From an uncultured Candidatus Saccharibacteria bacterium (GTDB lineage Bacteria > Patescibacteriota > Minisyncoccia > CAIUEV01 > JAHKAQ01): a stretch of 64,000 nucleotides of DNA. The DNA lies in contig CAZRBB010000005.1 of assembly GCA_964598205.1 (NCBI GenBank), positions 5,721 to 69,720 of the forward strand, given 5' to 3'. Shown here piece after piece: positions 7,118 through 64,000 of this stretch (position 1 is its first letter; each line of letters begins with the position of its first letter). The position numbers were made by a program, and so were the translations under genes. The notes under the pieces are model-generated. The model did not search any database and was not told where the DNA came from. It worked only from the letters and a program-made list of their open reading frames with translations.

Positions 7118-8827
7118 TTATTTTTTCTCATCGTCCGTAATTCGTGATTTCCTTACTAGTCCCCAAGCTAATTTTTTCCCCATGAACTGCTCCAAAAATC
7201 CTAAAATAGTTTGGGAAACAAAAATTGCCGAAAACATGGAAAAAATAATACCCACTCCTAAAGTAATGGCGAATCCCTTAACCGATCCCGTACCCATCCC
7301 CGCTAAAATAACACAGGTTATAAGAGTAGAAAAATTGCCATCCCGAATAGACGGCCAAGCTCTTTTTTCGGCATTTTTTAGCGCCGTCTTCATGTTTCTA
7401 CCTTCCCTTAACTCTTCTTTCATCCGCTCAAAAATTAGAACATTGGCATCCACTGCCATTCCCAAAGACAAAACAAATCCCGCAATTCCAGCTAAAGTTA
7501 AAGTTACTCCTAAAATTTTAAAAACCGCTACTAAAGTTACCGCATAGAACGCCAATGCCAAAACCGCTATTAATCCTGGTAAAAGATAAAAAGCAATCAT
7601 AAATCCAGAAACCAAAGCCAAACCAAAAGCACCAGCAGTAAGACTTTGCTGTAACGAAACCTTTCCTAGACTTGCACCCACCAATTCCTGGCTCAAAAGT
7701 TCAATCGGTACCGGCAACGCTCCGGAATTTAATCGCTTGGCCAAATCCTTAGCTTCTGCTAAATCCCTAGAACCAGTGATTACTGCTTGACCATCGGCAA
7801 TCACCGTTCGCACCACTGGCACAGTAACCGGCTGTCCGTCTAATAAAATAGCTACTCTCTTTTCCTGATTTCTTTCGGTGATTTCTCTAAAAAGATTTTT
7901 GCCTTCTTCGTCGAATCGCAAAGAAACTTGGGGTTCTTGCGTATTCTGATCAAAAACTACTTGCGCATCTTTTAGGTTTTTACCAGAAAGTCCCGTTGGT
8001 TTAAAAGGAAACCCTGTAGTTTCTTCTTTCTTTTCTTCGTCCACCAAAAGAAATAGAATATGACTCGTCCTTACTTCTTTCCCATCACCCTCACCCCTTT
8101 CATTGGTCTTTTTAAGAATATGATAACCAAAAGGACTCTTTACTAATTCCCGCCAAACCGAACCTTTTATAAAACGAGAATTAAAAAAAATCGTTTCTAA
8201 TTCGGGAACAAAAGCTTGTTCACCATTCTTCTTGTAAAAATCCAAATCACCGCCCGCCTCTTTGCTCCCAGGATCTTCTGAATATTTCTTAGCTAATTTG
8301 GAAAAATCTTCTCCACTTAAAGCTCTTTTTAAAACCGCTTCAGCTTCAACTTTTTTTGCTTGATTCTGCTCCTTTCTTAGTGTCTTTTCGGAATCGGTTA
8401 GGGCATAATCTTTGTCTGTTTTTTCTTCCCAAAATTCCAAAATGGGAGTCTCCCCAATCATTTTCACAGCCAAAGAGATATCTTTAGCGCCAGCCAAATC
8501 CACTGTAATTCGCTGCTCCCCGCCCGATTGTGAAGTAGTTACTTCTGGTTCAGAAATACCATAAGCATTGACTCTTCTTTCAATTACATCTCTAGCTCCG
8601 CTTAAGCTTTCTGCCACCCGATCCGAAGGAATCCGGCTCATGTCCGCCTTGTAAACCAAGTGCGCCCCTCCTTCTAAGTCTAGCCCTAGATCAATTTTTA
8701 AATCTCTTAAATACTTTCCAATATTTTTACCAAAAATAGAAAAATCCGGCATTACAGGACTAGCTATCGCCGCAAAAGCAATAAACATTAAGCTAATCAA
8801 AAAAAGTCTGGAATTTATCTTTTTCAT
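7118..8827 (-). CDS. secD: Protein translocase subunit SecD with an embedded parvulin-type PPIase-like domain in its periplasmic head
   Basis: 569 aa with SecD N- and C-terminal homology and a 6-TM bundle. The central segment ...SKEAGGDLDFYKKNGEQAFVPELETIFF...SPFGYHILKK...VRTSHILF matches the parvulin GGDLG...FGYHII signature. Confidence 0.9.
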   Translation of the reverse strand: MKKINSRLFLISLMFIAFAAIASPVMPDFSIFGKNIGKYLRDLKIDLGLDLEGGAHLVYKADMSRIPSDRVAESLSGARDVIERRVNAYGISEPEVTTSQSGGEQRITVDLAGAKDISLAVKMIGETPILEFWEEKTDKDYALTDSEKTLRKEQNQAKKVEAEAVLKRALSGEDFSKLAKKYSEDPGSKEAGGDLDFYKKNGEQAFVPELETIFFNSRFIKGSVWRELVKSPFGYHILKKTNERGEGDGKEVRTSHILFLLVDEEKKEETTGFPFKPTGLSGKNLKDAQVVFDQNTQEPQVSLRFDEEGKNLFREITERNQEKRVAILLDGQPVTVPVVRTVIADGQAVITGSRDLAEAKDLAKRLNSGALPVPIELLSQELVGASLGKVSLQQSLTAGAFGLALVSGFMIAFYLLPGLIAVLALAFYAVTLVAVFKILGVTLTLAGIAGFVLSLGMAVDANVLIFERMKEELREGRNMKTALKNAEKRAWPSIRDGNFSTLITCVILAGMGTGSVKGFAITLGVGIIFSMFSAIFVSQTILGFLEQFMGKKLAWGLVRKSRITDDEKK

Positions 8828-53184: not shown

Positions 53185-54036
53185 TTATTTTTTAATTTTT
53201 GACTTTTTTCCTAAAGAAAGAGAAAGAGCTTTTATTTGTTTATCTTTTTGATTCAATTGATCTTCAAAAAAGATAAGGTTTCTAGTCACCTCTTCTTTCA
53301 TTCCTTGCTTTTCTTTTTCTAAAATTTTAGTCTTTAGTGAAAGTTTTTTATTATTTTTTTGAAGCATTGCTAAATCTTCTTGTAGCGCAGAAACAGCCAA
53401 GCTATGAGCCATAATAGCCGCTTTTAATTCTTTTTCCCGTCCCGAAAGTGCCTCTTCTAAAAAACTCATTTCTTTCTTCCAAGAACTTTTTTGACTATTT
53501 AAATTTCCTTCTTTTTCTAAAAAACTTTTCCTCTCTCTTGCCACTTCACTCTTTAGCTCATCATTTTTTTTCCTCGCTACTAACAGCTCTTTTTCTAATA
53601 CTATCTTTGCAATTTCCCCTTCTTTCTTTTGATTTTCCTCTTTTTTCCGCAACTCTTTTTTAAAAAAAAGTAATTGCTCCGCCTTTGCGGAACTTTCTTT
53701 TAAAGTTTCTAACCGATTAATATTTTCTCCTATTAGTTGATCCTTCTTCTTTAATTCTTCTTCTAAAACATTAAGACTTTCCTTGACCAAACTTTCTAAC
53801 TTTTCCTTTTCTTCCCTTACTTTTTGAATCTCTGTAGAGAGTTTTTTTTGATTCGCCTTCTTTTTTTTATTCTTAATCTCTGTCTTTATCTTTTTCTCTT
53901 GGGGAAAAATTTTAGTTTCCACGGCAAAGCCCCAATCAATAAGAACCGTCCCCTTCTCTTTATCTTTTTGACTCTTGCAAAAATGAGTCTCCCCTTTTTG
54001 GTATTTACCCAAATCTTTTGTAAATTTAATCAACAT
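53185..54036 (-). CDS. Hypothetical K/E-rich coiled-coil protein
   Basis: 283 aa with a globular N-terminal ~45 aa followed by a continuous heptad-like charged coiled coil. Confidence 0.4.
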   Translation of the reverse strand: MLIKFTKDLGKYQKGETHFCKSQKDKEKGTVLIDWGFAVETKIFPQEKKIKTEIKNKKKKANQKKLSTEIQKVREEKEKLESLVKESLNVLEEELKKKDQLIGENINRLETLKESSAKAEQLLFFKKELRKKEENQKKEGEIAKIVLEKELLVARKKNDELKSEVARERKSFLEKEGNLNSQKSSWKKEMSFLEEALSGREKELKAAIMAHSLAVSALQEDLAMLQKNNKKLSLKTKILEKEKQGMKEEVTRNLIFFEDQLNQKDKQIKALSLSLGKKSKIKK

Positions 54037-54649
54037 TGGTTTTCTTTATTTTTGCTAATTTTAAAAAACACCAAAATTTTAAGTTAGATAATTTTACCTT
54101 CTCCTTCTCCTTTTCTTCTTCTACTTCCTTTTGATCTTCTTCCTGATTCAATGTTAATGTTTCCGTTTCCAATCCCTTTGAGTTTTCTGTTCCCGGCTCC
54201 ACTAAAAAATCCATCAAACTACTTTCTGTTTCTTCTCTAATGTTTTCTACTGGCACTTCCTTGGAAACTACCTTCTCAATCTTAAAAGATTCTTCTTCTG
54301 CTTCTTTTAAAAATTCGCTTACAGTTTTTTCGGCTTGATAAAGCTCTTCATTTAAAAAACTAAGCTGTTCCCTCTTTTTATCTAGCTGATTTCTTAACAC
54401 CAAAAACTTTTTTTCAAAGAAGAAAATTTCATCCTTCCCTTCGGTTAAACCAGCCAAAAGCCGATCCTGTTCTTTTTTAAAACGGACTAGTTCTTCTTTT
54501 TTAAACTTATATTTTCCATTTTTTTCTTCTGGATTCAAAAAAACCGGTCGCAATATTTTTTTATCAATAAAAGCCAAAAGATCTTCTTCTTTAATGTCCA
54601 AGAACTCCAAAGCCTCTTTTATCTTTACTAATGCCAATTTTGATTCCAT
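54026..54649 (-). CDS. Hypothetical coiled-coil protein
   Basis: 207 aa, charged with coiled-coil character. It overlaps the downstream coiled-coil gene by 11 nt. Confidence 0.4.
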   Translation of the reverse strand: MESKLALVKIKEALEFLDIKEEDLLAFIDKKILRPVFLNPEEKNGKYKFKKEELVRFKKEQDRLLAGLTEGKDEIFFFEKKFLVLRNQLDKKREQLSFLNEELYQAEKTVSEFLKEAEEESFKIEKVVSKEVPVENIREETESSLMDFLVEPGTENSKGLETETLTLNQEEDQKEVEEEKEKEKVKLSNLKFWCFLKLAKIKKTNVD

Positions 54650-54802: not shown

Positions 54803-55804
54803 ATGGAAAAAATAATAAAAATAATTCCCGAAAAATTAAAAGAAGGCGATGAAATAAGAGTAATCGCTCCGTCTCAGTCTTTGGCTATTATTTCCGAAGA
54901 AATCAAAACAATAGCTTTAGAGCGTTTTTTTGAAATCAACATTCAAATAACTTTTGGAGAAAACGCAGAAGAAAAAGACGAAACCAATTCCAGTCGAATT
55001 GATTCCCGCATTAAAGACTTGCACCAAGCTTTTAGCGACCCCAAGGTTAAAGGAATATTAACGGTCTTGGGTGGTTTTAATAGCAATCAGCTCCTAGATT
55101 ATTTGGATTGGGAACTAATCAAGAAAAATCCCAAAATCTTTTGCGGTTTTGCCGACATCACCGCCCTAAATAATGCCATCTTTCAAAAAACGGGTCTGGT
55201 CAACTATTCTGGTCCCGACTTCTCTACTTTTGGTCAAAGACTTTATTTTGAATACACGCTAGAATATTTTAAAAAATGCTTGTTTCTGAATTACCCTTTT
55301 TATTGTGGCGCCTCCAAGGAATGGAGCGACGATTCCTGGTTTTTGGATCAAAACAACCGAAGTCTAACCACTAATAGTGGCCTATCTTTAATCAAAGAAG
55401 GAGAAGCAGAGGGAACAATTGTTGGAGGTAACCTAAGTACTTTTAGGCTACTTCAGGGAACACAATATTTTCCAAGCTTGGAGGGTACCATTCTTTTTAT
55501 AGAAGAAGACGGCGAAATTCCACTAGAAAAACTAGATAGGGATCTACAATCACTGATCCATCTTCCTGATTTTAAGGGGGTAAAGGGAATGATTTTTGGC
55601 CGATTCCAAAGAGGAAGTAGTTTAGATGAATACAAAATCAAACAGTTAGTTGATTCCAAAAAGGAACTTGCTAATTTACCCATGATTGCTGGAGTAGACT
55701 TTGGCCATACCGATCCTAAAATCACTTTTCCTATTGGCGGCAAAGCCAGAATCAAAGCCTACGAAGCAATGGAGCATTTAGAGCTAGAGATATTAGAACA
55801 CTAA
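54803..55804 (+). CDS. Peptidase S66 family (LD-carboxypeptidase LdcA / microcin-C immunity MccF-like) homolog with Ala at the predicted nucleophile position
   Basis: 333 aa. EGDEIRVIAPSQSL, LTVLGGFNSN and CGFADITAL correspond to the S66 G(F/Y)SD(I)TAL block, with Ser replaced by Ala. LFIEEDGE carries the Glu, and GVDFGHTDP carries the His. Confidence 0.75.
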   Translation: MEKIIKIIPEKLKEGDEIRVIAPSQSLAIISEEIKTIALERFFEINIQITFGENAEEKDETNSSRIDSRIKDLHQAFSDPKVKGILTVLGGFNSNQLLDYLDWELIKKNPKIFCGFADITALNNAIFQKTGLVNYSGPDFSTFGQRLYFEYTLEYFKKCLFLNYPFYCGASKEWSDDSWFLDQNNRSLTTNSGLSLIKEGEAEGTIVGGNLSTFRLLQGTQYFPSLEGTILFIEEDGEIPLEKLDRDLQSLIHLPDFKGVKGMIFGRFQRGSSLDEYKIKQLVDSKKELANLPMIAGVDFGHTDPKITFPIGGKARIKAYEAMEHLELEILEH

Positions 55805-55810
55805 TAAGCC

Positions 55811-56776
55811 ATGCCCACACTACAACTCTATTCTAATTGGTGGTGGATTCGTTTTCTTTTAACACAAAAGTGCAACCAAAAATGCCCCGACTGTTCTCTT
55901 TGTGAGCTTAAAAAAAACAAGGATGATTTTATAGATCCCAAAAAAATTATTGATGCTTTTAGAGTCTTTTCTCTTTGGGGTTATCGGAATGTCACTCTTT
56001 ACGGAGGAGAACCACTGCTTCATCCTTCTTTCCTTAATATTTACAACAAAGCTCAGCACTTTTTCCCAAATATCCAAGTATTTACCAACGGAACAATTAC
56101 CTTCCCAATAAAAATTGTTCCTAGAAAAACAGATTTTTTTATTTTCAATTTTGACTTTAATAAAAATAAAACCTTTATTAAAAATGTTTTCTTTTTAAGG
56201 AAAAATATTCATCCTCACTTGAATTTTAGCATTATTGTTCAGAAAGAAACCGATATTAATCAATTAAAAGCTGATTTGAATTTTTTTGTTAAAAACAATC
56301 TTCAGGATTTTTCTGTTCGTATTTCCATGAACTGTTTTGCAGATATCCTAAAAGAAAAGAAAATTCTTAATCAGAAAATAGTCAGTTTAATAGGCGTTCT
56401 GCAAGAATTGGGTATCCCTTGTGGAATGGCACAAAAAATCCCTCTCTGTTTTTTTCTTTTTCCACTAAAAAAAATCATTAAGTCAACAGTGAATCCCTTT
56501 TGTGGGAAAGAATGTGGTGGTCTTATAGACCCGAATTTTAATATTTTATCTTGTGGAGCGCTATATCGTTACGAGATTAACCCTAGAGATATTAAACCAA
56601 AAAATATGTTTTATAAAAACAAAATTATTTCTCGCAAAAAACATCAAGAAGTGCTTAAACAAATTCTTAAAATTAAATTAAAAAGAAAATCTCCTGATCC
56701 AAAATGCCAAGCTTGCGAATACTACAAAAGAAGAGATTGTGACAGTACCGGCTGTTTTCCTTATACTAAACCATAG
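55811..56776 (+). CDS. Radical SAM protein with a Cys-rich SPASM/twitch-like C-terminal region
   Basis: 321 aa. FLLTQKCNQKCPDC provides the CxxxCxxC motif, and GGEPLLHP is the SAM-binding GGE motif. The C-terminus carries CGMAQKIPLC...CGKECGG...SCGALY...CQACEYYKRRDCDSTGC. It lies 7 nt downstream of the S66 gene. Confidence 0.75.
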   Translation: MPTLQLYSNWWWIRFLLTQKCNQKCPDCSLCELKKNKDDFIDPKKIIDAFRVFSLWGYRNVTLYGGEPLLHPSFLNIYNKAQHFFPNIQVFTNGTITFPIKIVPRKTDFFIFNFDFNKNKTFIKNVFFLRKNIHPHLNFSIIVQKETDINQLKADLNFFVKNNLQDFSVRISMNCFADILKEKKILNQKIVSLIGVLQELGIPCGMAQKIPLCFFLFPLKKIIKSTVNPFCGKECGGLIDPNFNILSCGALYRYEINPRDIKPKNMFYKNKIISRKKHQEVLKQILKIKLKRKSPDPKCQACEYYKRRDCDSTGCFPYTKP

Positions 56777-56781
56777 ACAAA

Positions 56782-58488
56782 TCATTTCTGTTTTTCTTTA
56801 TTCACTTTTTTCTCTTTTTTATTTTTAAATTTATCAACAATTATTTTCTTTACCATTATTAACCAAGGAAAAAATAAAGTCACCCCCAAAAGCGTCCAAA
56901 AAACTCTCCTATTAAACTGGTCACGGAGACAGACCACTCCTTCAATTTTTTTACAATCATAAATCTCTTTCATTGTCTTTTTTGATTCTCCCTTACTATT
57001 GTAAGAACTTACTTCTAATTCTAAATAATCAAGGTCTTTTGGAGCTTTAATCTTATTCCTCCATCCCTTTATCACTCCGTCTATTTTCCCCACATAAACA
57101 GCTCTTCCAATTTCTCCTCCTTCTTTGTCTTTTAATAAAAGTTCTATTCTTGAAACATTATTTTCATTGGCTAGTGATTGTTTTTTTTGAATATCCTGAA
57201 AAAATTCATATAAACTTAAATCAAAAAAACCCGTAAAAAGATCCACCGTTTCTCCTTTTCTTATTGGAAATTTATTAATACCAGTACCAATTAAACATGG
57301 CACATCTCCTTTATACTCAAGAAAGATCGGAAAATAAACAATATATTTCCTCCCTTCGCCTTCAATTAAAACCTGGAGAGAGGAGCCACCAAAAGTATTG
57401 TCCGCTCCATAAAATCCCTTCTCCTTAAAAGTTTTTTGAGCCCTCTCAATATAATCGTCCAAATTGAACTCATGAGAAACTTCTTCTGTTGACCTTGGTT
57501 TTACTGCAAAAGAACGCCTTTCGGCAATTTCGTTCAAATCCTTATCCAAGCCCGCAAATCTTCCGCCAAAAAAATTAATCAAATCATAACGAACATTAAA
57601 ATTCTTTGCTTCTTGTGAATTATTAAACATTTTAAAACGAACTGTTACCTGAGAATAGCTAATAATATTCTGGATATTTTTGATAAAAAATCTATTCTCT
57701 TTATTTATCATTTCAAAATCAAAACCCCCATCCTTGGAAACCAAGCCAAAACTTTTATCACCCTTTAATACGGAAAAAATAAAAGAACCTCTAGAAAGTT
57801 TTGGGAGCCACTGACGAGGATTAGCATAAAGCATGGAACCCTCAAGTCTCCGCGAAACACTACTATCAACAGCTCCTACATCTAAGGAATAATTTCCTGG
57901 GGGAATATTTTCTGGAATAGTGTATAAAAAAGAAATCTTCTTTTCCCTTCCCCCTGTCAAATCAAAAGAATTGGGAGTTATTAGAAATAAATCATTCAAC
58001 AATTCAGTAGGATAATAATTTGCACCTAGTGTCTTTAATGATCCATGAATTTTTATATTAACTAACGGATAGCTTTCTGGATTTTTTAATAAAATATTCA
58101 AAATAATCTTCTCCCCACCTTTTAGCTCTTTATTGTTTTTATCACCATTCTCTTTTACTGCAGAAACTAGCTCAAGAACAGATTGCTGATTGGATTTTTG
58201 ATACCCCGCTCTATTTACCAATTCTCCAAGATAAAAAGGTTCACCAATAGACCCTTCCCTTACATAATTCCCTCCCAAACCAAAAGAAGGATCTTTTAGC
58301 AAAAAAGCATCAGGGGCCAGTCGTTCATTTTTTATAATTTCGTTCTTGTGATTACGAAAATACAGAACGAGAAAAACGATTAGTATCCCAATTGAAAGAA
58401 CAGTAAGTACTTTCTGCCAAGCAAGTATTTTTTTTACTTTTTTGTCTTTATTCATAAGACCGCTTAATAAAAAGTATCTAAGGGACAT
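56782..58488 (-). CDS. Paralog 1 of a three-member family of bitopic (TM at both ends) surface/extracytoplasmic proteins
   Basis: 568 aa. The likely true start is at M12 (MNKDKK, ~58455), by alignment with the paralog N-termini. It has an N-terminal TM, a large hydrophilic body sharing blocks with 58498..60054 and 61315..63000, a conserved C-terminal YDCKKIEGVVCLRDQFNRRVFW, and a second TM. Confidence 0.6.
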   Translation of the reverse strand: MSLRYFLLSGLMNKDKKVKKILAWQKVLTVLSIGILIVFLVLYFRNHKNEIIKNERLAPDAFLLKDPSFGLGGNYVREGSIGEPFYLGELVNRAGYQKSNQQSVLELVSAVKENGDKNNKELKGGEKIILNILLKNPESYPLVNIKIHGSLKTLGANYYPTELLNDLFLITPNSFDLTGGREKKISFLYTIPENIPPGNYSLDVGAVDSSVSRRLEGSMLYANPRQWLPKLSRGSFIFSVLKGDKSFGLVSKDGGFDFEMINKENRFFIKNIQNIISYSQVTVRFKMFNNSQEAKNFNVRYDLINFFGGRFAGLDKDLNEIAERRSFAVKPRSTEEVSHEFNLDDYIERAQKTFKEKGFYGADNTFGGSSLQVLIEGEGRKYIVYFPIFLEYKGDVPCLIGTGINKFPIRKGETVDLFTGFFDLSLYEFFQDIQKKQSLANENNVSRIELLLKDKEGGEIGRAVYVGKIDGVIKGWRNKIKAPKDLDYLELEVSSYNSKGESKKTMKEIYDCKKIEGVVCLRDQFNRRVFWTLLGVTLFFPWLIMVKKIIVDKFKNKKEKKVNKEKQK

Positions 58489-58497
58489 TCTTGTTGA

Positions 58498-60054
58498 CTA
58501 GTCACGAAGACAAGCCACTCCTTCAATCTTTTTGCAATCGTAAATCTCTTCCGTTGTTTTATCTAATTTCCCTTGATTGTTATAAATGCTCGCCGTTAAC
58601 TCTAAATAATCAAGGTCTTTTGGAGCTTTAATCTTATTCCTCCATCCCTTTGTTGATCCGTCTATTTTCCCCACATAAACAGCTCTTCCAATTTCTCCTC
58701 CTTCTTTGTCTTTTAATAAAAGTTCTATTCTTGAAACATTATTTTCATTGGCTAATACTTGCTTCTCTTTGCTATTTTGAAAGGATTGAGACAATCTTAA
58801 ATCAAGAAAGCCTGTAAAAAGATCTACCGTTTCTCCTTTTCTTATTGGAAATTTACTAATATTGGGAACAGTCAAGCAAGCCGCATACCCCTTAAATTCA
58901 CGAAACAGGGGAAAGTAAACAATATATTTTCTTCCTTCGCCCTCAATTAAAATCTGGAGAGAAGAGAATCCAAAAATATTATCCGCCCAAGAAAAATCCT
59001 TATCATTAAAAGATTTTTGAGCCCTTTCAATATAATCGTCCAAATTGAACTCGTGAAAAACTTCTTCTGTTGACCCTGGTTTTACTGTAAAAGAACGCCT
59101 TTCGGCAATTTTGTCCAAGTCTTTATTAAAATCCATAAACAATCCACCGGCAAGATTAATTAAATCATAACGAACACTAAAATTCTTTGCTTCTTGTGAA
59201 TCATTAAACATTTTGAAACGAACCCCTACTTGAGGATAACTAACAATATTCCAAGAACTTTTTAATGAAAATTTGTTCTCTTTGTTTATTATTTCAAAAT
59301 CAAGATCCCCATCCTTAGAAACCAAGCCAAAACTTTTATCACCATCTAGCACGGAAAAAATCAAAGAACCTTTAGGCGGCTTCTTCCACCCCCAATTACG
59401 ATAAAAAGTGAAACCGGCCAAATAACGATGATTATTCCCCTCAGTGGCTCCCAATTCTAAGGAATAATTTCCTGGAGGAATATTTTCTGGAATAGTGTAT
59501 AAAAAAGAAATCTTTTTTTCCTTTCCCCCTGCTAAATCAAAAGAATTGGAAGTTATTAGAAAAAAATCATTCAAAAAACTGGTTGGAAGATTTTTATCGC
59601 CCACTATCCCTCTTAGAACCCCAGCAATTTTTATATTAACTAACGGATAGTTTTCTGGATTTCTAAATAAAATATTTAGAACAATCTTCTCCCCACCTTT
59701 TAGCTCTTTATTGTTTTTATCACCATTCTCTTTTACTGCAGAAACTAGCTCAAGAACAGATTGCTGATTGGATTTTTGATACCCCGCTCTATTTACCAAT
59801 TCTCCAAGATAAAAAGGTTCACCAATAGACCCTTCCCTTACATAATTCCCTCCCAAACCAAAAGAAGAATCTTTTAGCAAAGATGATTCAGGAGAAACAA
59901 AAGACTCTTTTTCAAAAATCAATCTTTTGCGACTGCGAAAAAAAAGAACGAGAGAAGCAACTAATACCAAAACCAAAAAAACAACAAATATCTTTCGCCA
60001 AAAAAAAACATTTTTTAATTTTACTTCTTTCTCTTTATTTTTTATTATATCCAC
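58498..60054 (-). CDS. Paralog 2 of the surface-protein family, lacking the C-terminal TM
   Basis: 518 aa with the same N-terminal TM and conserved blocks. It ends ...YDCKKIEGVACLRD* at a TAG that is in frame with the start of paralog 1. Confidence 0.6.
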   Translation of the reverse strand: MDIIKNKEKEVKLKNVFFWRKIFVVFLVLVLVASLVLFFRSRKRLIFEKESFVSPESSLLKDSSFGLGGNYVREGSIGEPFYLGELVNRAGYQKSNQQSVLELVSAVKENGDKNNKELKGGEKIVLNILFRNPENYPLVNIKIAGVLRGIVGDKNLPTSFLNDFFLITSNSFDLAGGKEKKISFLYTIPENIPPGNYSLELGATEGNNHRYLAGFTFYRNWGWKKPPKGSLIFSVLDGDKSFGLVSKDGDLDFEIINKENKFSLKSSWNIVSYPQVGVRFKMFNDSQEAKNFSVRYDLINLAGGLFMDFNKDLDKIAERRSFTVKPGSTEEVFHEFNLDDYIERAQKSFNDKDFSWADNIFGFSSLQILIEGEGRKYIVYFPLFREFKGYAACLTVPNISKFPIRKGETVDLFTGFLDLRLSQSFQNSKEKQVLANENNVSRIELLLKDKEGGEIGRAVYVGKIDGSTKGWRNKIKAPKDLDYLELTASIYNNQGKLDKTTEEIYDCKKIEGVACLRD

Positions 60055-60110
60055 AAAAATCTAATAATCTATTGCTAAAGAAGCTCTAAAAAAATTATTT
60101 ATGTTTTTCT

Positions 60111-61337
60111 TTATCCCTTTGGTCCACCGTTCTGGTAGGTACTCGCTAAAAATCCTTCGGCAAAGAAATTAGTCTCTCCGTCTATCTTCCAAAGATTAAA
60201 GGTTCGTATTTTCTTTTTTAGTTCCTTAATTTTTACTATCTTAATCCACTCTTTCTTTAGACTAAAAAGCTCGTCTCCTTCTTTTAATTCAAAAGGATTT
60301 TTAACATGAGTAGCAATCTTACATTTTTTAAAATTCTTTTTACTCAAAACACCCCAACCAATTTTATCTTTCTTTTTTGAATACAATGGGTGCTCTGCAG
60401 ACACTACTAATCTTTTACCGTTTTCCATTAGTAATTCAAACATGTCTTCCCGTTGAGCAGTGGTAATAGTTCTAATAACTTTTTTTTCTAATTTATTTTC
60501 ATTAACATTGTAAGAAACCACCTTTTGTCCAATTTTTAATTTATCAATAGGAAGAGACTTGTTTTCGTAAAGAGCAATTTTGGTATTACTAGCAAAGCAT
60601 TGGTCACTGCCGCTATCGGCTGTGGTGCAGTTGGTGGTGTAATCGATGGAGGTAGTGGAGGTAGTTTCGGTAGTGGAGGTAGTTTCGGTAGTGGAGGTAG
60701 TTTCGGTAGTGGAGGTAGTTTCGGTAGTGGAGGGGGCGGGAATGTAGAGGTAGTAGAGGTAGTAGTAGTAGTCGTAGGTGTCGGAGTAGGTGTTGGAGTA
60801 GGTGTTGGAGTAGGTGTTGGAGTAGGTGTTGGAGTAGGTGTTATGATAATTATTAACATACTGGCTGGTAGTGGCGGTAGTGGCGGTAGTGGCGGTAGTG
60901 GCGGTAGTTTCGGTGAAGGTAGTGGAGGTAGTGGAGGTAGTGGAGGTAGTGCTGGTAGTGGCGGTAGTACAGTCGCAATCACAGGTTGTTCCTGCTGGAG
61001 TAATTGTTGGATACGCTTCATCCCAAGAACTAGCACTCCCTGTCCAACTACCACTGTTCGTAGGAACAGCATAAACCCTGTCCCCTTTAAACAATTGACT
61101 AACGCTGCTTAATAAAACATCATCGTTCTGGTGAACCCGATGAACCATAAAAGTATAATCCGTCCTTGCAGAATAATTAAAACCAGCGGAAATATTACTT
61201 CCAGTGCAGGAAGAACTTGCAGATTGATTGGTAGGAGAAGCCGCTAAGACGCTCTCCCCCTTTTCTTGATTCTTAGAAGCCAAAAAAGAAGAAGCGCAGA
61301 GAAGAGAAATAAGTTTAGCAATGTCCCTTTTTTTCAT
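60111..61337 (-). CDS. Secreted Ser/Thr-rich tandem-repeat protein with a C-terminal Hint (Hedgehog/intein-like) domain
   Basis: 408 aa with a signal peptide, then repeats (TTS)n, (TTA)n, (YSNT)5, YYYYLYYLY and (TTETTS)4. The Hint-like domain runs CFASNTKIALYENKSLPIDKLKIGQKVVSYN...VVSAEHPLYS...KEGDELF...TFNLWKIDGETNFFAEGFLASTYQN. Confidence 0.65.
   Translation of the reverse strand: MKKRDIAKLISLLCASSFLASKNQEKGESVLAASPTNQSASSSCTGSNISAGFNYSARTDYTFMVHRVHQNDDVLLSSVSQLFKGDRVYAVPTNSGSWTGSASSWDEAYPTITPAGTTCDCDCTTATTSTTSTTSTTSTTFTETTATTATTATTATTSQYVNNYHNTYSNTYSNTYSNTYSNTYSDTYDYYYYLYYLYIPAPSTTETTSTTETTSTTETTSTTETTSTTSIDYTTNCTTADSGSDQCFASNTKIALYENKSLPIDKLKIGQKVVSYNVNENKLEKKVIRTITTAQREDMFELLMENGKRLVVSAEHPLYSKKKDKIGWGVLSKKNFKKCKIATHVKNPFELKEGDELFSLKKEWIKIVKIKELKKKIRTFNLWKIDGETNFFAEGFLASTYQNGGPKG
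60648..60960. repeat. Perfect in-frame coding tandem repeats (18-nt x4, 15-nt x5, 9-nt x7) inside the Hint-protein gene
   Basis: ggaggtagtttcggtagt repeats 4 times at ~60648-60735. gtaggtgttggagta repeats 5 times at ~60774-60843. ggtagtggc/ggtagtgga repeats 7 times at ~60866-60960. These produce ORFs in all frames (60536..61072, 60600..61112, 60871..61074). Confidence 0.9.
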
Positions 61338-63000
61338 TTTTCTTTTTTAATTTATCAACGATAATTAAGGCTAGCACTAAACCGGAGAAAAATAAAGTCA
61401 CTCCTAAAAGCGTCCAAAGAACTTTCCGGTTAAACTGGTCACGGAGACAAACGGCTCCTTCAATCTTTTCACAATCGTAGACATCTTTCATTGTCCTTTC
61501 CAATTCCCCTTGATTGTTATAAATACTCATCGTTAACTCTAAGTAATCAAGATCATTTTGAACTTTTATTTTATTTCTCCAACCTTTTGTTACGCCATCA
61601 ACCTTTCCTATATAAACGGTCCTTCCTATTTCATTTCCATCTTTATCTTTTAATAAGAGCTCTATTTTAGAAACATTGTTTTCGCTAGCTAATGATTGCT
61701 TTTTTTGAATATCTTGGAAAAATTCAAACAACATTAAATCAAAAAAACCCGTGAAAAGATCCACCGTCTCCCCTTTTTTTATAGGGAATTTACTAATACC
61801 AAAATTATGCGAATATGTCCCTGCCATTTCAAATTCAAGATACAAAGGAAAGTAAACAATATATTTTCTTCCTTCACCCTCAATTAAAACCTGAAGAGTA
61901 GAAGAACTAAAAGAATTATCCGCCCAATAAAATCCCTTTTCCCTAAAAGCTTTCTGAGCCCTTTTAATGTAGTCTTCCAGATTAAACTCATGAAGAACTT
62001 CTTCGGTTGATCTCGGTTTTACCGTAAAAGAAGCCCTTTCGGGAACTTTGTCTAAATCCTTATCCAGATCCGCAAATATTCCACCAAAAAGATTAATTAA
62101 ATCATAACGAACACTAAAATTCTTTGCTTCTTGTGAATCATTAAACATTTTAAAACGAACCCCTACTTGAGGATAGCTAATAATAATCCAAGGATTTTTT
62201 AATGAAAATTTATTCTCTTTGTTTATCACTTCAAAATCAAGATCCTCATCCTTAGAAACCAAGCCAAAACTTTTATCACCATCTACTACGGAAAACACCA
62301 AAGAGGTTCTGCCAACCTGTATCTCCCGATCGATATAAACAAAACCACTTCCATCTAAATATCGCAAAGCATTACTATCAACGGCTCCTACACCTATAGA
62401 GTATTCTCCCGGAGAAATGTTTTCTGGAATAGTATATGGAAAAGAAATCTTCTTTTCCATTCCTCCCGCCAAACTAAAAGAATTAGGAGTTATTAAAAAG
62501 AAATCATTCAGCAATTTAGTAAGTCTGCCTGCATGTCGCGTCTTTAATGCTCCATGAATTTTTATATTAACTAACGGATAGCTTTCTGGATTTTTTAATA
62601 AAATATTCAAAATAATCTTCTCCCCACCTTTTAGCTCTTTATCGTTTTTTATATCACCATTTTCATTTTCTACAGAAATTAGTCTGAGTATAGCTTGATT
62701 TTTGCGGTTTTTCCACCATCCTCTATTTATCAATTCTCCAAGATAAAAAGGTTCACCAATAGACCCCTCTCTTACATAATTCCCTCCCAAACCAAAAGAA
62801 GGATCTTTCGATAAAGATGTTTCATGAGAAACAGAAGTCTCTTTTCTAAAAATTCCGCTTTTACGATTGCGAAAGAAAAGAACAAGAGAAGCAACTAATA
62901 CCAAAACCAAAAAAACAACAAATATCTTTCGCCAAAAAAAAATATTTTTTAGCTTCCCTTTTTCATCTCCACTTTCGTTTTTGTTTTTGTTTTTGTCCAT
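61315..63000 (-). CDS. Paralog 3 of the bitopic surface-protein family
   Basis: 561 aa with an N-terminal TM (FFWRKIFVVFLVLVLVASLVLFF, identical to paralog 2). It has conserved blocks and a C-terminal YDCEKIEGAVCLRDQFNRKVLW followed by a TM. Confidence 0.6.
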   Translation of the reverse strand: MDKNKNKNESGDEKGKLKNIFFWRKIFVVFLVLVLVASLVLFFRNRKSGIFRKETSVSHETSLSKDPSFGLGGNYVREGSIGEPFYLGELINRGWWKNRKNQAILRLISVENENGDIKNDKELKGGEKIILNILLKNPESYPLVNIKIHGALKTRHAGRLTKLLNDFFLITPNSFSLAGGMEKKISFPYTIPENISPGEYSIGVGAVDSNALRYLDGSGFVYIDREIQVGRTSLVFSVVDGDKSFGLVSKDEDLDFEVINKENKFSLKNPWIIISYPQVGVRFKMFNDSQEAKNFSVRYDLINLFGGIFADLDKDLDKVPERASFTVKPRSTEEVLHEFNLEDYIKRAQKAFREKGFYWADNSFSSSTLQVLIEGEGRKYIVYFPLYLEFEMAGTYSHNFGISKFPIKKGETVDLFTGFFDLMLFEFFQDIQKKQSLASENNVSKIELLLKDKDGNEIGRTVYIGKVDGVTKGWRNKIKVQNDLDYLELTMSIYNNQGELERTMKDVYDCEKIEGAVCLRDQFNRKVLWTLLGVTLFFSGLVLALIIVDKLKKKNEKKGHC

Positions 63001-63150
63001 AAATAAAAATAAAATAAAGTAAGATAAAATAAAACCCTACCAAAATTACACTACAAATATACCATGCCCCACATTTTCTAGCAAATTAATCATCCTTCTC
63101 AGTCGTACTTTATTCATGTAGAATCACTAAGACAATAAAAAGCCCAAAAA

Positions 63151-64000
63151 ATGGAAAAATTTTTCTCAAATTTAATATCCCCTTTCCGCTCAACAATAAA
63201 AAAGAAGATTAGATTCAAGAAAGAAATCTTCACCAATACTCTAAAAATTAATTTAACTCAAAGCTGCAATCAAGAACATCTTTCTTGTTACTCTAAATGC
63301 CCAGAAGAAAACAACAACACTTTCATAAAAAAAGAGAAATTACTAAAAACAATGAAAGAATTCTCTTTTTGGGGGTTAAAGAGAATTTCCTTTTCAGGAG
63401 GAGAGCCCTTGCTTCATCCGGACTTCTTTTTTATTTATAACCAAGCCCAAATACTATTTGAAGAAGTTCGAGTTTCCACTAATGGAACCATTCCCCTACA
63501 AGGAGAGCTGGTAGCTAGACAAAGCGATGTCTTTATTTTTAATTTTAAATTTTCAAAAGATGAAAATTTTATTAGAAACTTACATTTACTAAACAATAAA
63601 ACAAACCCTAAAATATTATTCAACATTTTAATAGAAAAAGACACTAACATTCCTCTTTACAAGGAACAGATTCTCCTTTTAAAAAACATTAATTTAAAAA
63701 GAATACTCTTTTCTCTTTCCTTTGATTCCAAAAAAAACATTAACCAAGAAAAAGAAATTCTTAACGAAAAAACTTTTGAAATAGTTAATTTCATTTATAA
63801 CAATAGACAGAATTGCATTCTTCATCAAAGAGTTCCTTACTGCTTTCTCCTTCCAAAATTAAAAGAATTACTAAAAATAAAGACTCCCCAAGGCTATAGC
63901 CTAGAATGCTTAGGAATGCTGGATCACAATTTCAACATCTACCCCTGCCCTCAACACCACCAAGAAAAAAATCCCAAAAACATGTTTTCTAAAAACGACA
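63151..64000 (+). CDS. Divergent paralog of the 55811..56776 radical-SAM protein with a non-canonical Cys spacing (3' end beyond the window)
   Basis: ATG is at 63151 and no stop occurs before 64000, which is why it is missing from the ORF track. The translation runs MEKFFSNL...INLTQSCNQEHLSCYSKCPEEN...FSGGEPLLHPDFFFIYNQAQ...FIFNFKFSKDENF...CFLLPKLKELL...ECLGMLDHNFNIYPCPQ. It is clearly homologous to rSAM1 (GGEPLLHP, FIFNF(D/K)F, NMF(Y/S)KN), but the cluster motif is Cx6Cx3C. Confidence 0.65.
   Translation, partial: MEKFFSNLISPFRSTIKKKIRFKKEIFTNTLKINLTQSCNQEHLSCYSKCPEENNNTFIKKEKLLKTMKEFSFWGLKRISFSGGEPLLHPDFFFIYNQAQILFEEVRVSTNGTIPLQGELVARQSDVFIFNFKFSKDENFIRNLHLLNNKTNPKILFNILIEKDTNIPLYKEQILLLKNINLKRILFSLSFDSKKNINQEKEILNEKTFEIVNFIYNNRQNCILHQRVPYCFLLPKLKELLKIKTPQGYSLECLGMLDHNFNIYPCPQHHQEKNPKNMFSKND

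Follow-up and report, generated by a model that had tools for sequence, protein, structure and literature searches.

The stretch considered here, called the window, is 64,000 nucleotides of contig CAZRBB010000005.1 from an uncultured Candidatus Saccharibacteria bacterium, and all coordinates are positions in it unless another contig is named. The locus of interest, 54803-64000, holds genes for an S66-family (MccF/LdcA-like) protein, two radical S-adenosylmethionine (rSAM) proteins, three paralogous surface proteins and a protein ending in a Hint domain, and all of the open reading frames (ORFs) of an initial annotation were found where it had placed them (Table 1). The minus-strand genes form an apparent operon in the order paralog 3, Hint gene, paralog 2, paralog 1, with an overlap of 23 nt between the first two and gaps of 56 and 9 nt between the others, and the divergent intergenic region ahead of it presumably carries promoters in both directions. 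Extension beyond position 64000, which the initial annotation had recommended, was possible on a 91-kb contig of Joint Genome Institute (JGI) dataset 3300045131 (L001, L003), on which rSAM2 is complete and its neighbours can be read. The initial annotation took an eight-gene cassette to be the functional unit. The evidence set out below favours instead a three-part module of surface protein, Hint protein and rSAM proteins, without the S66 gene, and that a conserved module of this kind exists is considered very probable.

Table 1. Features of the locus and their positions in the window
Feature	Position	Strand	Length and remarks
S66 protein (MccF/LdcA-like)	54803-55804	+	333 aa
rSAM1	55811-56776	+	321 aa; starts 6 nt after S66
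Surface-protein paralog 1	56782-58488	-	568 aa, or 557 aa from Met12
Gene-conversion tract in paralog 1	58166-58230	-	65 nt; holds all 23 substitutions between window and JGI contig
Surface-protein paralog 2	58498-60054	-	518 aa
Hint fusion protein	60111-61337	-	408 aa; probably a precursor
Hint (bacterial-intein-like) domain	60135-60599	-	Cys1 is Cys247 (codon 60597-60599); block B SAEH
Ser/Thr/Tyr-rich linker	60600-60968	-	123 residues; three in-frame tandem arrays (TTS/TTA, NTYS, TTETTS) found with Tandem Repeats Finder (TRF)
Signal-peptide-like N-terminus (MKKRDIAKLISLLCASS) and small domain of ~85 aa ending ITPAGTTCDCDC	60969-61337	-	
Surface-protein paralog 3	61315-63000	-	561 aa; first gene of the minus-strand operon
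Divergent intergenic region, paralog 3/rSAM2	63001-63150		150 nt
rSAM2	63151-64000	+	cut by the window end; 331 aa when complete

Related loci

A HMMER scan of 1.84 billion representative proteins with a paralog profile returned 99 relatives of the surface proteins, four of them with E < 1e-30, while most of the others share only the last ~150 residues, which end in Y-D/S-C-x6-7-C and a helix. Searches of other kinds gave less. Protein searches filtered by k-mers, for which paralog 3, rSAM1 and the paralog alignment served as queries, gave little but self matches, apart from one rSAM1 relative, P0004 (rSAM1 does not match itself there because its cluster has a 95-aa fragment as representative). 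Species-representative genomes were scanned twice, with the paralog alignment and with the Hint alignment, and yielded nothing, and a metagenome scan with the Hint alignment found a single 1.2-kb contig, L015.

Among the HMMER relatives with E < 1e-18, the surface gene is directly followed by a homolog of the Hint-protein gene in L007, L010 and L016/L017. In loci that have a close paralog relative (21-28% identity) and enough flanking sequence, the surface gene adjoins a homolog of the Hint-protein gene, counting a version whose product lacks the Hint domain, and rSAM genes adjoin the surface/Hint pair in every locus with enough flank. The contig that carries P0004, L006, encodes a 527-aa paralog homolog (26% identity) with two helices and the motif YDCNELGDGQC, a 300-aa Hint homolog ~2 kb away, which has the same small domain and Hint domain and no repeats, and a DsbA-like protein. 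L007 (P0011) has a surface gene, a Hint gene, a second paralog lacking both the helices and the Cys pair, five rSAM genes and a gene for a fusion of a phosphoribosyltransferase (PRTase) with a beta-propeller; L010 (P0014) has two tandem rSAM1-family genes, two further rSAM genes, and surface, Hint, methyltransferase, SPASM rSAM and nitroreductase genes. Further loci are L016/L017 (P0016, from two wastewater samples), with surface, Hint and methyltransferase genes, and L008/L009/L015 (P0013, from three samples), with an rSAM gene, a surface gene and a gene for a 152-155-aa secreted protein. In L018 (P0015) a HemN-like rSAM gene accompanies one for a surface-like protein and there is no Hint gene. 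Distant members that share only the C-terminal module (P0017, P0019, P0022, P0025) have neither an rSAM nor a Hint neighbour. The initial annotation had staked its proposal on co-occurrence of rSAM, paralog family and S66 genes in other genomes. The first two, together with Hint genes, do recur in distant genomes (L006-L010, L015-L017), but S66 recurs in none of them.

The larger loci (L006, L007, L010) contain five to seven rSAM genes together with ThiF, U32, nitroreductase and PRTase-propeller genes. With tblastn, none of the larger-cluster enzymes (the 393-, 457- and 545-aa rSAMs, the PRTase-propeller, ThiF and U32 proteins) was found in the window and its 10-kb extension, and for that reason the window locus is regarded as a minimal version, made up of surface genes, a Hint gene and two small rSAM genes. 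The fusion of PRTase to a beta-propeller resembling those that bind pyrroloquinoline quinone (PQQ), absent from the window, closes the rSAM clusters of L006 (17932-19587) and L007 (10367-11681), the two copies being 49% identical.

Because adjacency is kept while the proteins are 21-37% identical between loci, a functional link is indicated. The alternative is that there is no such link, an envelope operon and separate rSAM genes, perhaps of an island for a cofactor or for a ribosomally synthesised and post-translationally modified peptide (RiPP), having stayed together through shared gene-order ancestry in related anaerobes. Few lineages are sampled, gene order differs among them, the rSAM complement ranges from one to seven genes, and in the window the rSAM genes and the cassette genes are on opposite strands, all of which would suit this explanation. 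At identities so low, however, unselected synteny is normally lost; of all these genes the window keeps just those for the small rSAMs, the surface proteins and the Hint protein, the others having been lost; and it is the distant surface-protein relatives that lack both neighbours. Chance retention of neighbours is thus rated rather improbable.

The Hint fusion protein

The small domain at the start of the Hint protein is conserved in six orthologs and has no Pfam or PDB sequence match. Preceding it is an N-terminal sequence (MKKKDIFK..SLLVAA) whose conservation greatly exceeds what is usual for signal peptides at such a distance, and that might double as a recognition leader. Two other kinds of signal were considered and rejected, a lipobox because conservation does not extend to the Cys of LLC and the residues at -3 to -1 are unsuitable, and a type IV pilin-like signal because there is no G|F...E motif. 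In the linker TRF finds units of 18 nt (4.6 copies at 100%), 12 nt (5.8 copies at 98%) and 9 nt (12 copies), so that the perfect in-frame tandem repeats of the initial annotation are indeed present as perfect or near-perfect arrays. They are lineage-specific, being absent from the orthologs in L006 and L010 and short in that of L007, and are therefore not a conserved target of the rSAM enzymes, a role that had been proposed for the repeat protein.

The domain that follows scores 31.4 bits against Pfam Hint (cut-off 29.7) and is also matched by Vint and by Intein_splicing, the last at 25.1, below its cut-off of 35.8; its matches in the PDB are 6y75/6tmm at 5e-5 and, weakly, the bacterial intein-like (BIL) domain 2lwy. 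Cys247 is invariant in four orthologs, and SAEH of the window protein aligns with TFEH, TLEH and TNDH, an xxxH block. A true splicing intein was rejected, as there is no C-terminal His-Asn plus nucleophile, no C-extein, and an Intein_splicing score below cut-off; the window protein simply ends GFLASTY (GFLASTYQNGGPKG). His-Asn is absent from the C-terminus of the Hint domain in the window, L006 and L007 alike, and since the domain there lacks the C-terminal Asn, only cleavage or transfer at its N-terminal side is chemically possible in those three. With these residues kept and missing, the domain would be expected to act, if at all, at its N-terminal junction.

The version without a Hint domain is informative in this regard. 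Encoded at L008 3055-3513, in L009 and at L015 372-839, it consists of the small domain and a Cys/Thr/Asp-rich tail and ends in SGGGDDDDSGGN, exactly where Cys1 of the Hint domain begins in other orthologs, i.e. at the predicted cleavage junction. What is conserved as the product is thus the small domain plus a Cys-rich tail, the Hint domain behaving as a C-terminal module that can be removed. In all orthologs the Hint domain is bordered by Cys-rich segments. In L010 (11604-12521) and L016 (2439-3389) the Hint domain ends in VHN and is followed by Cys/Gly-rich tails of the form (x-C-G-x)n (KGGCGGSCGDGCGGGCC; KDGDCSGGCSGGCEGGGCEGGSCGCGSGGACGMGCNE), and in L010 the SPASM rSAM encoded two genes downstream of the Hint gene scores 272 bits against the ACGX-system model, below its 400-bit cut-off.

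The rSAM proteins

The match of rSAM1 to Pfam Radical_SAM (PF04055) is confined to the N-terminal half and scores 31.7 bits, the cut-off being 29.5. Its CX3CX2C cluster motif, CNQKCPDC at residues 21-28 (55871-55894), is kept in P0004 and in both L010 copies, and the GGE SAM-binding motif is present as a conserved GGEPLLH. Further on come conserved Cys213 and Cys248 and, downstream of these, a C-terminal Cys-rich segment (CQACEYYKRRDCDSTGCFPY). Its paralog rSAM2 (35-37% identity, E = 1e-49) scores 38.2 bits against the same Pfam model and shares with it a C-terminal CxxCxYYKxxxCxxxCFPY, there in the version CQSCEYYKKGICNTGCFPY. Unlike rSAM1 and all three of its orthologs elsewhere, which retain CX3CX2C, rSAM2 has a degenerate cluster motif, C39-x3-H43-x2-C46 (63265-63288), with a further Cys at position 50, four residues past the motif. 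This substitution raises the possibility that rSAM2 is a partner without catalytic activity or holds its cluster by an unusual set of ligands. The full-length relatives of rSAM1, in L006 (P0004, 32% identity) and L010 (the two tandem copies), each lie beside paralog-family and Hint genes.

No NCBIfam equivalog model (MoaA, QueE, NirJ, anSME, HxsC, PqqE and others) comes near its cut-off with either protein. The best scores, 35.8 bits for rSAM1 (MoaA, cut-off 231) and 50.1 bits for rSAM2, involve only the N-terminal 80-100 residues. A housekeeping rSAM family of the MoaA or QueE type, which the initial annotation had named among the findings that would refute its proposal, is rejected, every NCBIfam score being far below cut-off. 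A profile of the rSAM1 family has matches in viperin-like proteins, SkfB and MoaA, in each case to the N-terminal half, and SuiB is the only solved rSAM protein that aligns with it over its full length. An AlphaFold2 (AF2) model of rSAM1 has a mean predicted local distance difference test score (pLDDT) of 65.5, falling below 50 at residues 289-321, the C-terminal Cys region; the structures nearest to it by Foldseek are SuiB, SkfB, AbmM, anSME, EpeE and PqqE, with SuiB, SkfB and anSME ranked first. SuiB, SkfB, anSME and EpeE are SPASM/twitch enzymes that modify peptides or proteins, and the rSAMs encoded near the Hint genes are likewise of types that act on such substrates. As the radical-SAM core begins at about residue 13, there is no room for an N-terminal RiPP recognition element (RRE). 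From the model and these comparisons, rSAM1 and rSAM2 seem to be small SPASM/twitch-like radical-SAM enzymes without an RRE.

The company of such enzymes raises the question of a classical RiPP cluster with an unrecognised small precursor, in which export, immunity or display would be the business of the Hint and surface proteins. The larger loci speak for this idea, with an ACGX/SbtM-like SPASM rSAM, an HxsC-like rSAM and an enzyme resembling B12-dependent rSAM C-methyltransferases, as well as ThiF-like, nitroreductase and methyltransferase genes. In the window, though, the intergenic spaces of the locus hold no plausible small precursor ORF, and no RRE domain, peptidase or dedicated exporter is encoded inside it, so neither the short precursor gene nor the RRE or other leader-binding domain in the maturase by which RiPP clusters are recognised was found there. 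The MacB-type transporter encoded downstream belongs to a separate sigma/anti-sigma unit unrelated to the rSAM, Hint and surface genes. A conventional RiPP cluster is accordingly held to be highly unlikely.

The surface proteins

Paralogs 1-3 are 68-71% identical to one another. In an AF2 model built from a 40-sequence alignment (pLDDT 85.4; predicted template modelling score, pTM, 0.79), residues 14-47 form a membrane helix, 64-510 a string of beta-sandwich domains and 519-558 another helix, and because there are Lys-rich tails at both ends, the termini are placed in the cytoplasm and the ectodomain outside. Paralog 1, whose true start is probably Met12 at 58455, as in the 557-aa JGI call, and paralog 3 both have an N-terminal helix, a beta-sandwich ectodomain, a Cys pair (YDCKKIEGVVC and YDCEKIEGAVC, respectively) and a C-terminal helix. 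Paralog 2, of 518 aa in both the NCBI and the JGI versions, has the N-terminal helix and the ectodomain and ends right after the Cys pair, at DCKKIEGVACLRD, without a C-terminal helix. The initial annotation had given all three a membrane segment at each end, which is right for paralogs 1 and 3 and not for paralog 2, and a motif DCKKIEGxxC, of which the Cys pair is conserved and the intervening residues differ in paralog 3.

The pair is nearly invariant across 40 family members. The model places it extracytoplasmically, after the final beta-sandwich and ahead of the C-terminal helix. Distant members that have neither an rSAM nor a Hint gene close by (P0019, P0022, P0025) keep the pair, and it is missing from paralog-family genes that lie inside rSAM clusters (the second copy in L007, and L018). 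The initial annotation had favoured this pair as an rSAM target. In that explanation the rSAM enzymes would crosslink the two Cys residues (YDCxxxxxxxC) ahead of the C-terminal helix, and the S66 protein would bind a peptide-like ligand in the same system. The near-invariance of the pair, the rSAM genes on either side of the paralogs and the placing of S66 only 6 nt upstream of rSAM1 are in its favour. Yet a pair that is extracytoplasmic, as modelled, would be beyond a cytoplasmic rSAM enzyme unless modified before membrane insertion; it is present in relatives far from any rSAM gene and missing from some copies within rSAM clusters; an extracellular C-x7-C loop is most simply a disulfide, and L006 has a DsbA-like gene; and S66 is absent from all related loci. 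The explanation is considered unlikely, and since the pair is extracellular and present in relatives with no rSAM gene nearby, a disulfide is the more likely state of it.

Recombination among the paralogs

Against a background of ~75-80% DNA identity, exact blocks of 185 and 98 nt are shared by paralogs 1 and 2, one of 92 nt by paralogs 1 and 3, and blocks of 63 and 58 nt by paralogs 2 and 3, and the most similar pair switches along the gene. Three of these are longer than 90 bp, in keeping with the mosaic paralogs of the initial annotation. Blocks in paralogs 1 and 2, e.g. codons 76-120 and 451-480, have zero synonymous divergence (pS = 0), from which recent conversion between paralogs is deduced. 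The overall ratio of nonsynonymous to synonymous divergence (dN/dS) is 0.30-0.41, with the nonsynonymous proportion (pN) about equal to pS in two patches, codons 91-120 and 211-240. Positive selection was rejected, dN/dS being 0.3-0.4 and pN no more than about equal to pS in those two patches.

Over 14 kb the window and the JGI contig have only two differences. One is the 65-nt tract of Table 1, where the window has exactly the sequence of paralog 2 and the JGI contig a version like that of paralog 3 (53/65 nt). The other is a 12-nt indel of one NTYS unit (at 60782 in the window), which gives the Hint protein 408 aa in the window against 412 aa in the JGI contig (L001 11664-12902). The shuffling of the cassette that the initial annotation suggested might be seen between strains thus has an instance in the exchange of a paralog segment. 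Two other assemblies break inside paralog 1, as expected for repeats. Mosaic identity and strain differences attributable to transfer between paralogs are accordingly both present, but all three paralogs are intact ORFs in one apparent operon, an arrangement other than that of silent donors and a single expression site.

The S66 gene

Both domains of an S66 protein are present (PF02016 and PF17676, E = 1e-29 and 1.5e-30), and the protein matches solved MccF-like structures, BA_5613 (4e5s) at E = 4e-109 and Lmo1638 at E = 3e-104. For a low-GC uncultivated bacterium it is unusually near to these Bacillus anthracis and Listeria proteins (368 bits over 318 residues), and horizontal transfer of the gene is possible. 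Alignment to the BA_5613 structure upholds the initial annotation in that the nucleophilic Ser is replaced by Ala, GYSDITAL of the B. anthracis protein being GFADITAL here (Ala117, 55151-55153). The His (FGHTDP) and Glu (FIEED) are retained, leaving the Ser-His-Glu triad incomplete. An identical S66 protein is found in the NCBI, JGI and Logan assemblies, and because these are three independent sources, Ala117 is not a read error. Against the LdcA equivalog NF008424 the score is 114 bits, the cut-off being 378.

The 6-nt gap makes it probable that S66 is co-transcribed with rSAM1 here. It was, however, not found in any related locus (gene contents of L006, L007 and L010), and so its inclusion in the cassette does not stand. 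It is most likely an unrelated neighbour beside the division and cell wall (dcw) cluster, not a member of the conserved module.

A probable module of surface protein, Hint protein and rSAM proteins

The reading that best fits the material above has three parts. The first is a membrane-anchored beta-sandwich surface protein, in this organism triplicated and diversified by gene conversion. The second is a Sec-exported protein made of the small novel domain, a Cys/Thr/Asp-rich junction (TTCDCDC), which in the window genome has been expanded into Ser/Thr repeats, and the C-terminal Hint domain. The third is a set of small SPASM/twitch-like rSAM proteins without an RRE, here two of them, one with a degenerate cluster motif. 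In operation, the Cys-rich junction would be modified by one or both rSAM enzymes while the Hint-protein precursor is still in the cytoplasm, much as anSME acts on sulfatases that are to be exported. After export Cys247 would perform an N-to-S acyl shift, and the Hint domain would detach itself, through hydrolysis or transfer. The modified small domain and its stalk would then work alongside the product of the surface gene directly upstream, or joined to it. That RRE-less rSAM enzymes modify the Hint junction, that the Hint domain then removes itself and that the product acts with the surface protein is put forward tentatively, as a possibility judged somewhat short of probable and drawn from gene order and sequence features.

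Several considerations weigh against it. The Pfam score of rSAM1 is marginal, the Pfam SPASM model (PF13186) has no match in it, and the spacing of its C-terminal Cys residues, CX2CX7CX4C, departs from the canonical SPASM pattern, a seven-Cys motif of CX2CX5CX3C type; rSAM2 may be inactive. In the window protein TTCDCDC is separated from the Hint domain by ~120 residues of repeats. Support for a conserved neighbourhood comes from some six metagenomic lineages, of which several are represented by short contigs. The public searches had low sensitivity, as the k-mer searches missed known relatives and the scans of species-representative genomes were empty, so members of the rSAM1 family encoded apart from any Hint or surface gene may have escaped them. 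The extra enzymes of L006, L007 and L010 mean that the rSAMs may belong to a different, nearby pathway. As for diversification, assemblers can make chimeras among near-identical paralogs, which weakens the evidence for gene conversion.

How the thioester of the Hint domain is resolved allows for other possibilities. In one, akin to Hedgehog, the rSAM enzymes, with the further enzymes of the larger clusters, would make or tailor a lipid- or cofactor-like moiety, and either this moiety or a side chain of the surface protein would resolve the thioester. The outcome would be covalent anchoring of the small domain and not mere release. A C-terminal Hint domain without a C-terminal Asn is what Hedgehog-type domains that only transfer their N-terminal cargo have; the Hint gene is tightly coupled to a surface gene (by the 23-nt overlap here, and adjacent in L007, L010 and L016); and the larger loci include B12-type rSAMs weakly similar to lipid or hopanoid rSAM families, as well as the PRTase-propeller fusion. 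The ortholog without a Hint domain (L008/L009/L015), on the other hand, has a free C-terminus, which implies that the thioester is not essential, the extra enzymes are all missing from the window locus, and no sterol-recognition-like region follows the Hint domain. Such a transfer seems rather unlikely. A protein-ligation or display system is distinctly unlikely: here the rSAM enzymes would form crosslinks, e.g. Cys-Asp or Cys-Thr thioethers, in the Cys-rich junction, and a nucleophile of the surface protein or envelope, not water, would resolve the thioester. If this were the case, a crosslinked mucin-like stalk with its head domain would be covalently grafted onto a variable membrane-anchored receptor, and Hedgehog-style transfer would be used to build a bacterial cell surface.

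Surroundings of the locus

Upstream of S66 is the dcw cluster (MraZ, RsmH, FtsL-like, FtsI, MurE, Lgt), and the remainder of the window is ordinary chromosome, with SecA, UvrA, ClpB, ValRS and GlmS. An episymbiotic way of life, which the initial annotation had considered, found no support in these analyses. Between mraZ and S66, two overlapping Lys/Glu-rich ORFs on the minus strand (53185-54649; 283 and 207 aa), probably coiled-coil, have no Pfam family in JGI and Logan gene calls and are kept in all assemblies of the organism. At 7118-8827 (minus strand) a SecD-like protein includes, by insertion or fusion, a peptidyl-prolyl isomerase domain of PPIC type (Rotamase, residues 151-243).

Past rSAM2 come genes for small secreted proteins, the MacB-type ABC transporter, an anti-sigma-like protein and an extracytoplasmic function (ECF) sigma factor, and further on for UvrC, a PMT_2 glycosyltransferase and a third rSAM protein. 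Two secreted proteins of 148 and 164 aa (L001 8399-8845 and 4608-5102), whose C-terminal halves look alike by eye, flank the unit of MacB-type transporter, ECF sigma factor and anti-sigma protein. Secreted proteins, transporter and ECF sigma factor are probably a separate envelope-stress or export unit. The third rSAM gene (L001 2-175, minus strand) is ~9 kb past rSAM2, was called as 320 aa and is readable for 58 residues, its N-terminus being MITKNCNQNCPYCF.

Relation to known systems

With BIL and Hedgehog (Hog) Hint domains the window domain shares the N-terminal Cys, the block-B His and a place at the C-terminal end of a secreted, variable protein. As in those, splicing is not expected, the C-terminal Asn being missing, and cleavage or transfer would be at the N-terminal junction only. 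The locus differs in pairing a Hint domain with rSAMs and a cognate membrane-anchored surface protein, in its cargo, a small novel domain and a Cys/Thr/Asp-rich junction, and in lacking a sterol-recognition region after the Hint domain. To our knowledge, BIL and Hog proteins have not been described with dedicated rSAM partners or with a cognate membrane-anchored surface protein. In the open-access literature no paper was found that names both 'Hint domain' and 'radical SAM', and literature searches on intein-like proteins with rSAM and surface proteins, on BA_5613/Lmo1638 and on ACGX gave nothing relevant.

Among SPASM/twitch maturases (the SuiB, SkfB, anSME, QhpD and PapB types) rSAM1 has its counterparts in CX3CX2C, in GGE and in a Cys-rich C-terminal extension. 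The resemblance to anSME goes further, as rSAM1 lacks an RRE and would act on a protein destined for export. The rSAM1 genes also adjoin Cys-rich sequences. It departs from these maturases in reaching no equivalog cut-off, in lacking a Pfam SPASM match, in its odd Cys spacing and in being only 321 aa long. In place of a short peptide its presumed substrate is a Hint fusion of 300-400 aa, and one of the two rSAM copies has His for the middle Cys. A lead of a different type concerns the ACGX-system rSAM (NCBIfam TIGR04340, a hypothetical equivalog with a cut-off of 400 bits), against which 322-345-aa SPASM rSAMs of L006 and L010 score 245-272 bits. The tails that end the Hint proteins of L010 and L016 may be akin to the ACGX-repeat peptide family, which is a lead only, as the tails gave no HMM match. 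The window has neither such an rSAM nor such a tail.

Tandem paralogs, mosaic identical blocks and a strain difference in one tract recall Neisseria pilE/pilS, Borrelia vlsE and Mycoplasma families. In contrast to those of pilE/pilS type there are three complete and apparently expressed ORFs in one operon, no silent cassettes and no clear positive selection. The S66 protein is like MccF/LdcA in having both domains, a very strong match to BA_5613/Lmo1638 and the His and Glu, and unlike them in having Ala117 for the nucleophilic Ser, in scoring below the LdcA cut-off and in being encoded by a gene unlinked to the module elsewhere.

Significance

The surface/Hint/rSAM module has apparently not been described before and is found in a few distant metagenomic lineages. 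As far as its sequences indicate, each of its elements would belong to a known kind: a maturase of the rSAM type and the protein it acts on, autoprocessing by a Hint domain, and a family of surface proteins that recombine. Little is understood of bacterial Hint domains other than those of inteins and Hedgehog proteins, and the known substrates of rSAM maturases are almost all short peptides, apart from a few enzymes such as sulfatases. A self-removing Hint domain that carries or releases an rSAM-modified protein segment would, if the pairing is as proposed, be new to both fields. The window locus is the smallest version so far and hence the most practical for reconstitution in E. coli, and the three families together provide a genomic signature by which more examples may be recognised in uncultivated bacteria. 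The presence of a cognate surface protein, triplicated and recombining in one lineage, points to a role for the module at the cell surface.

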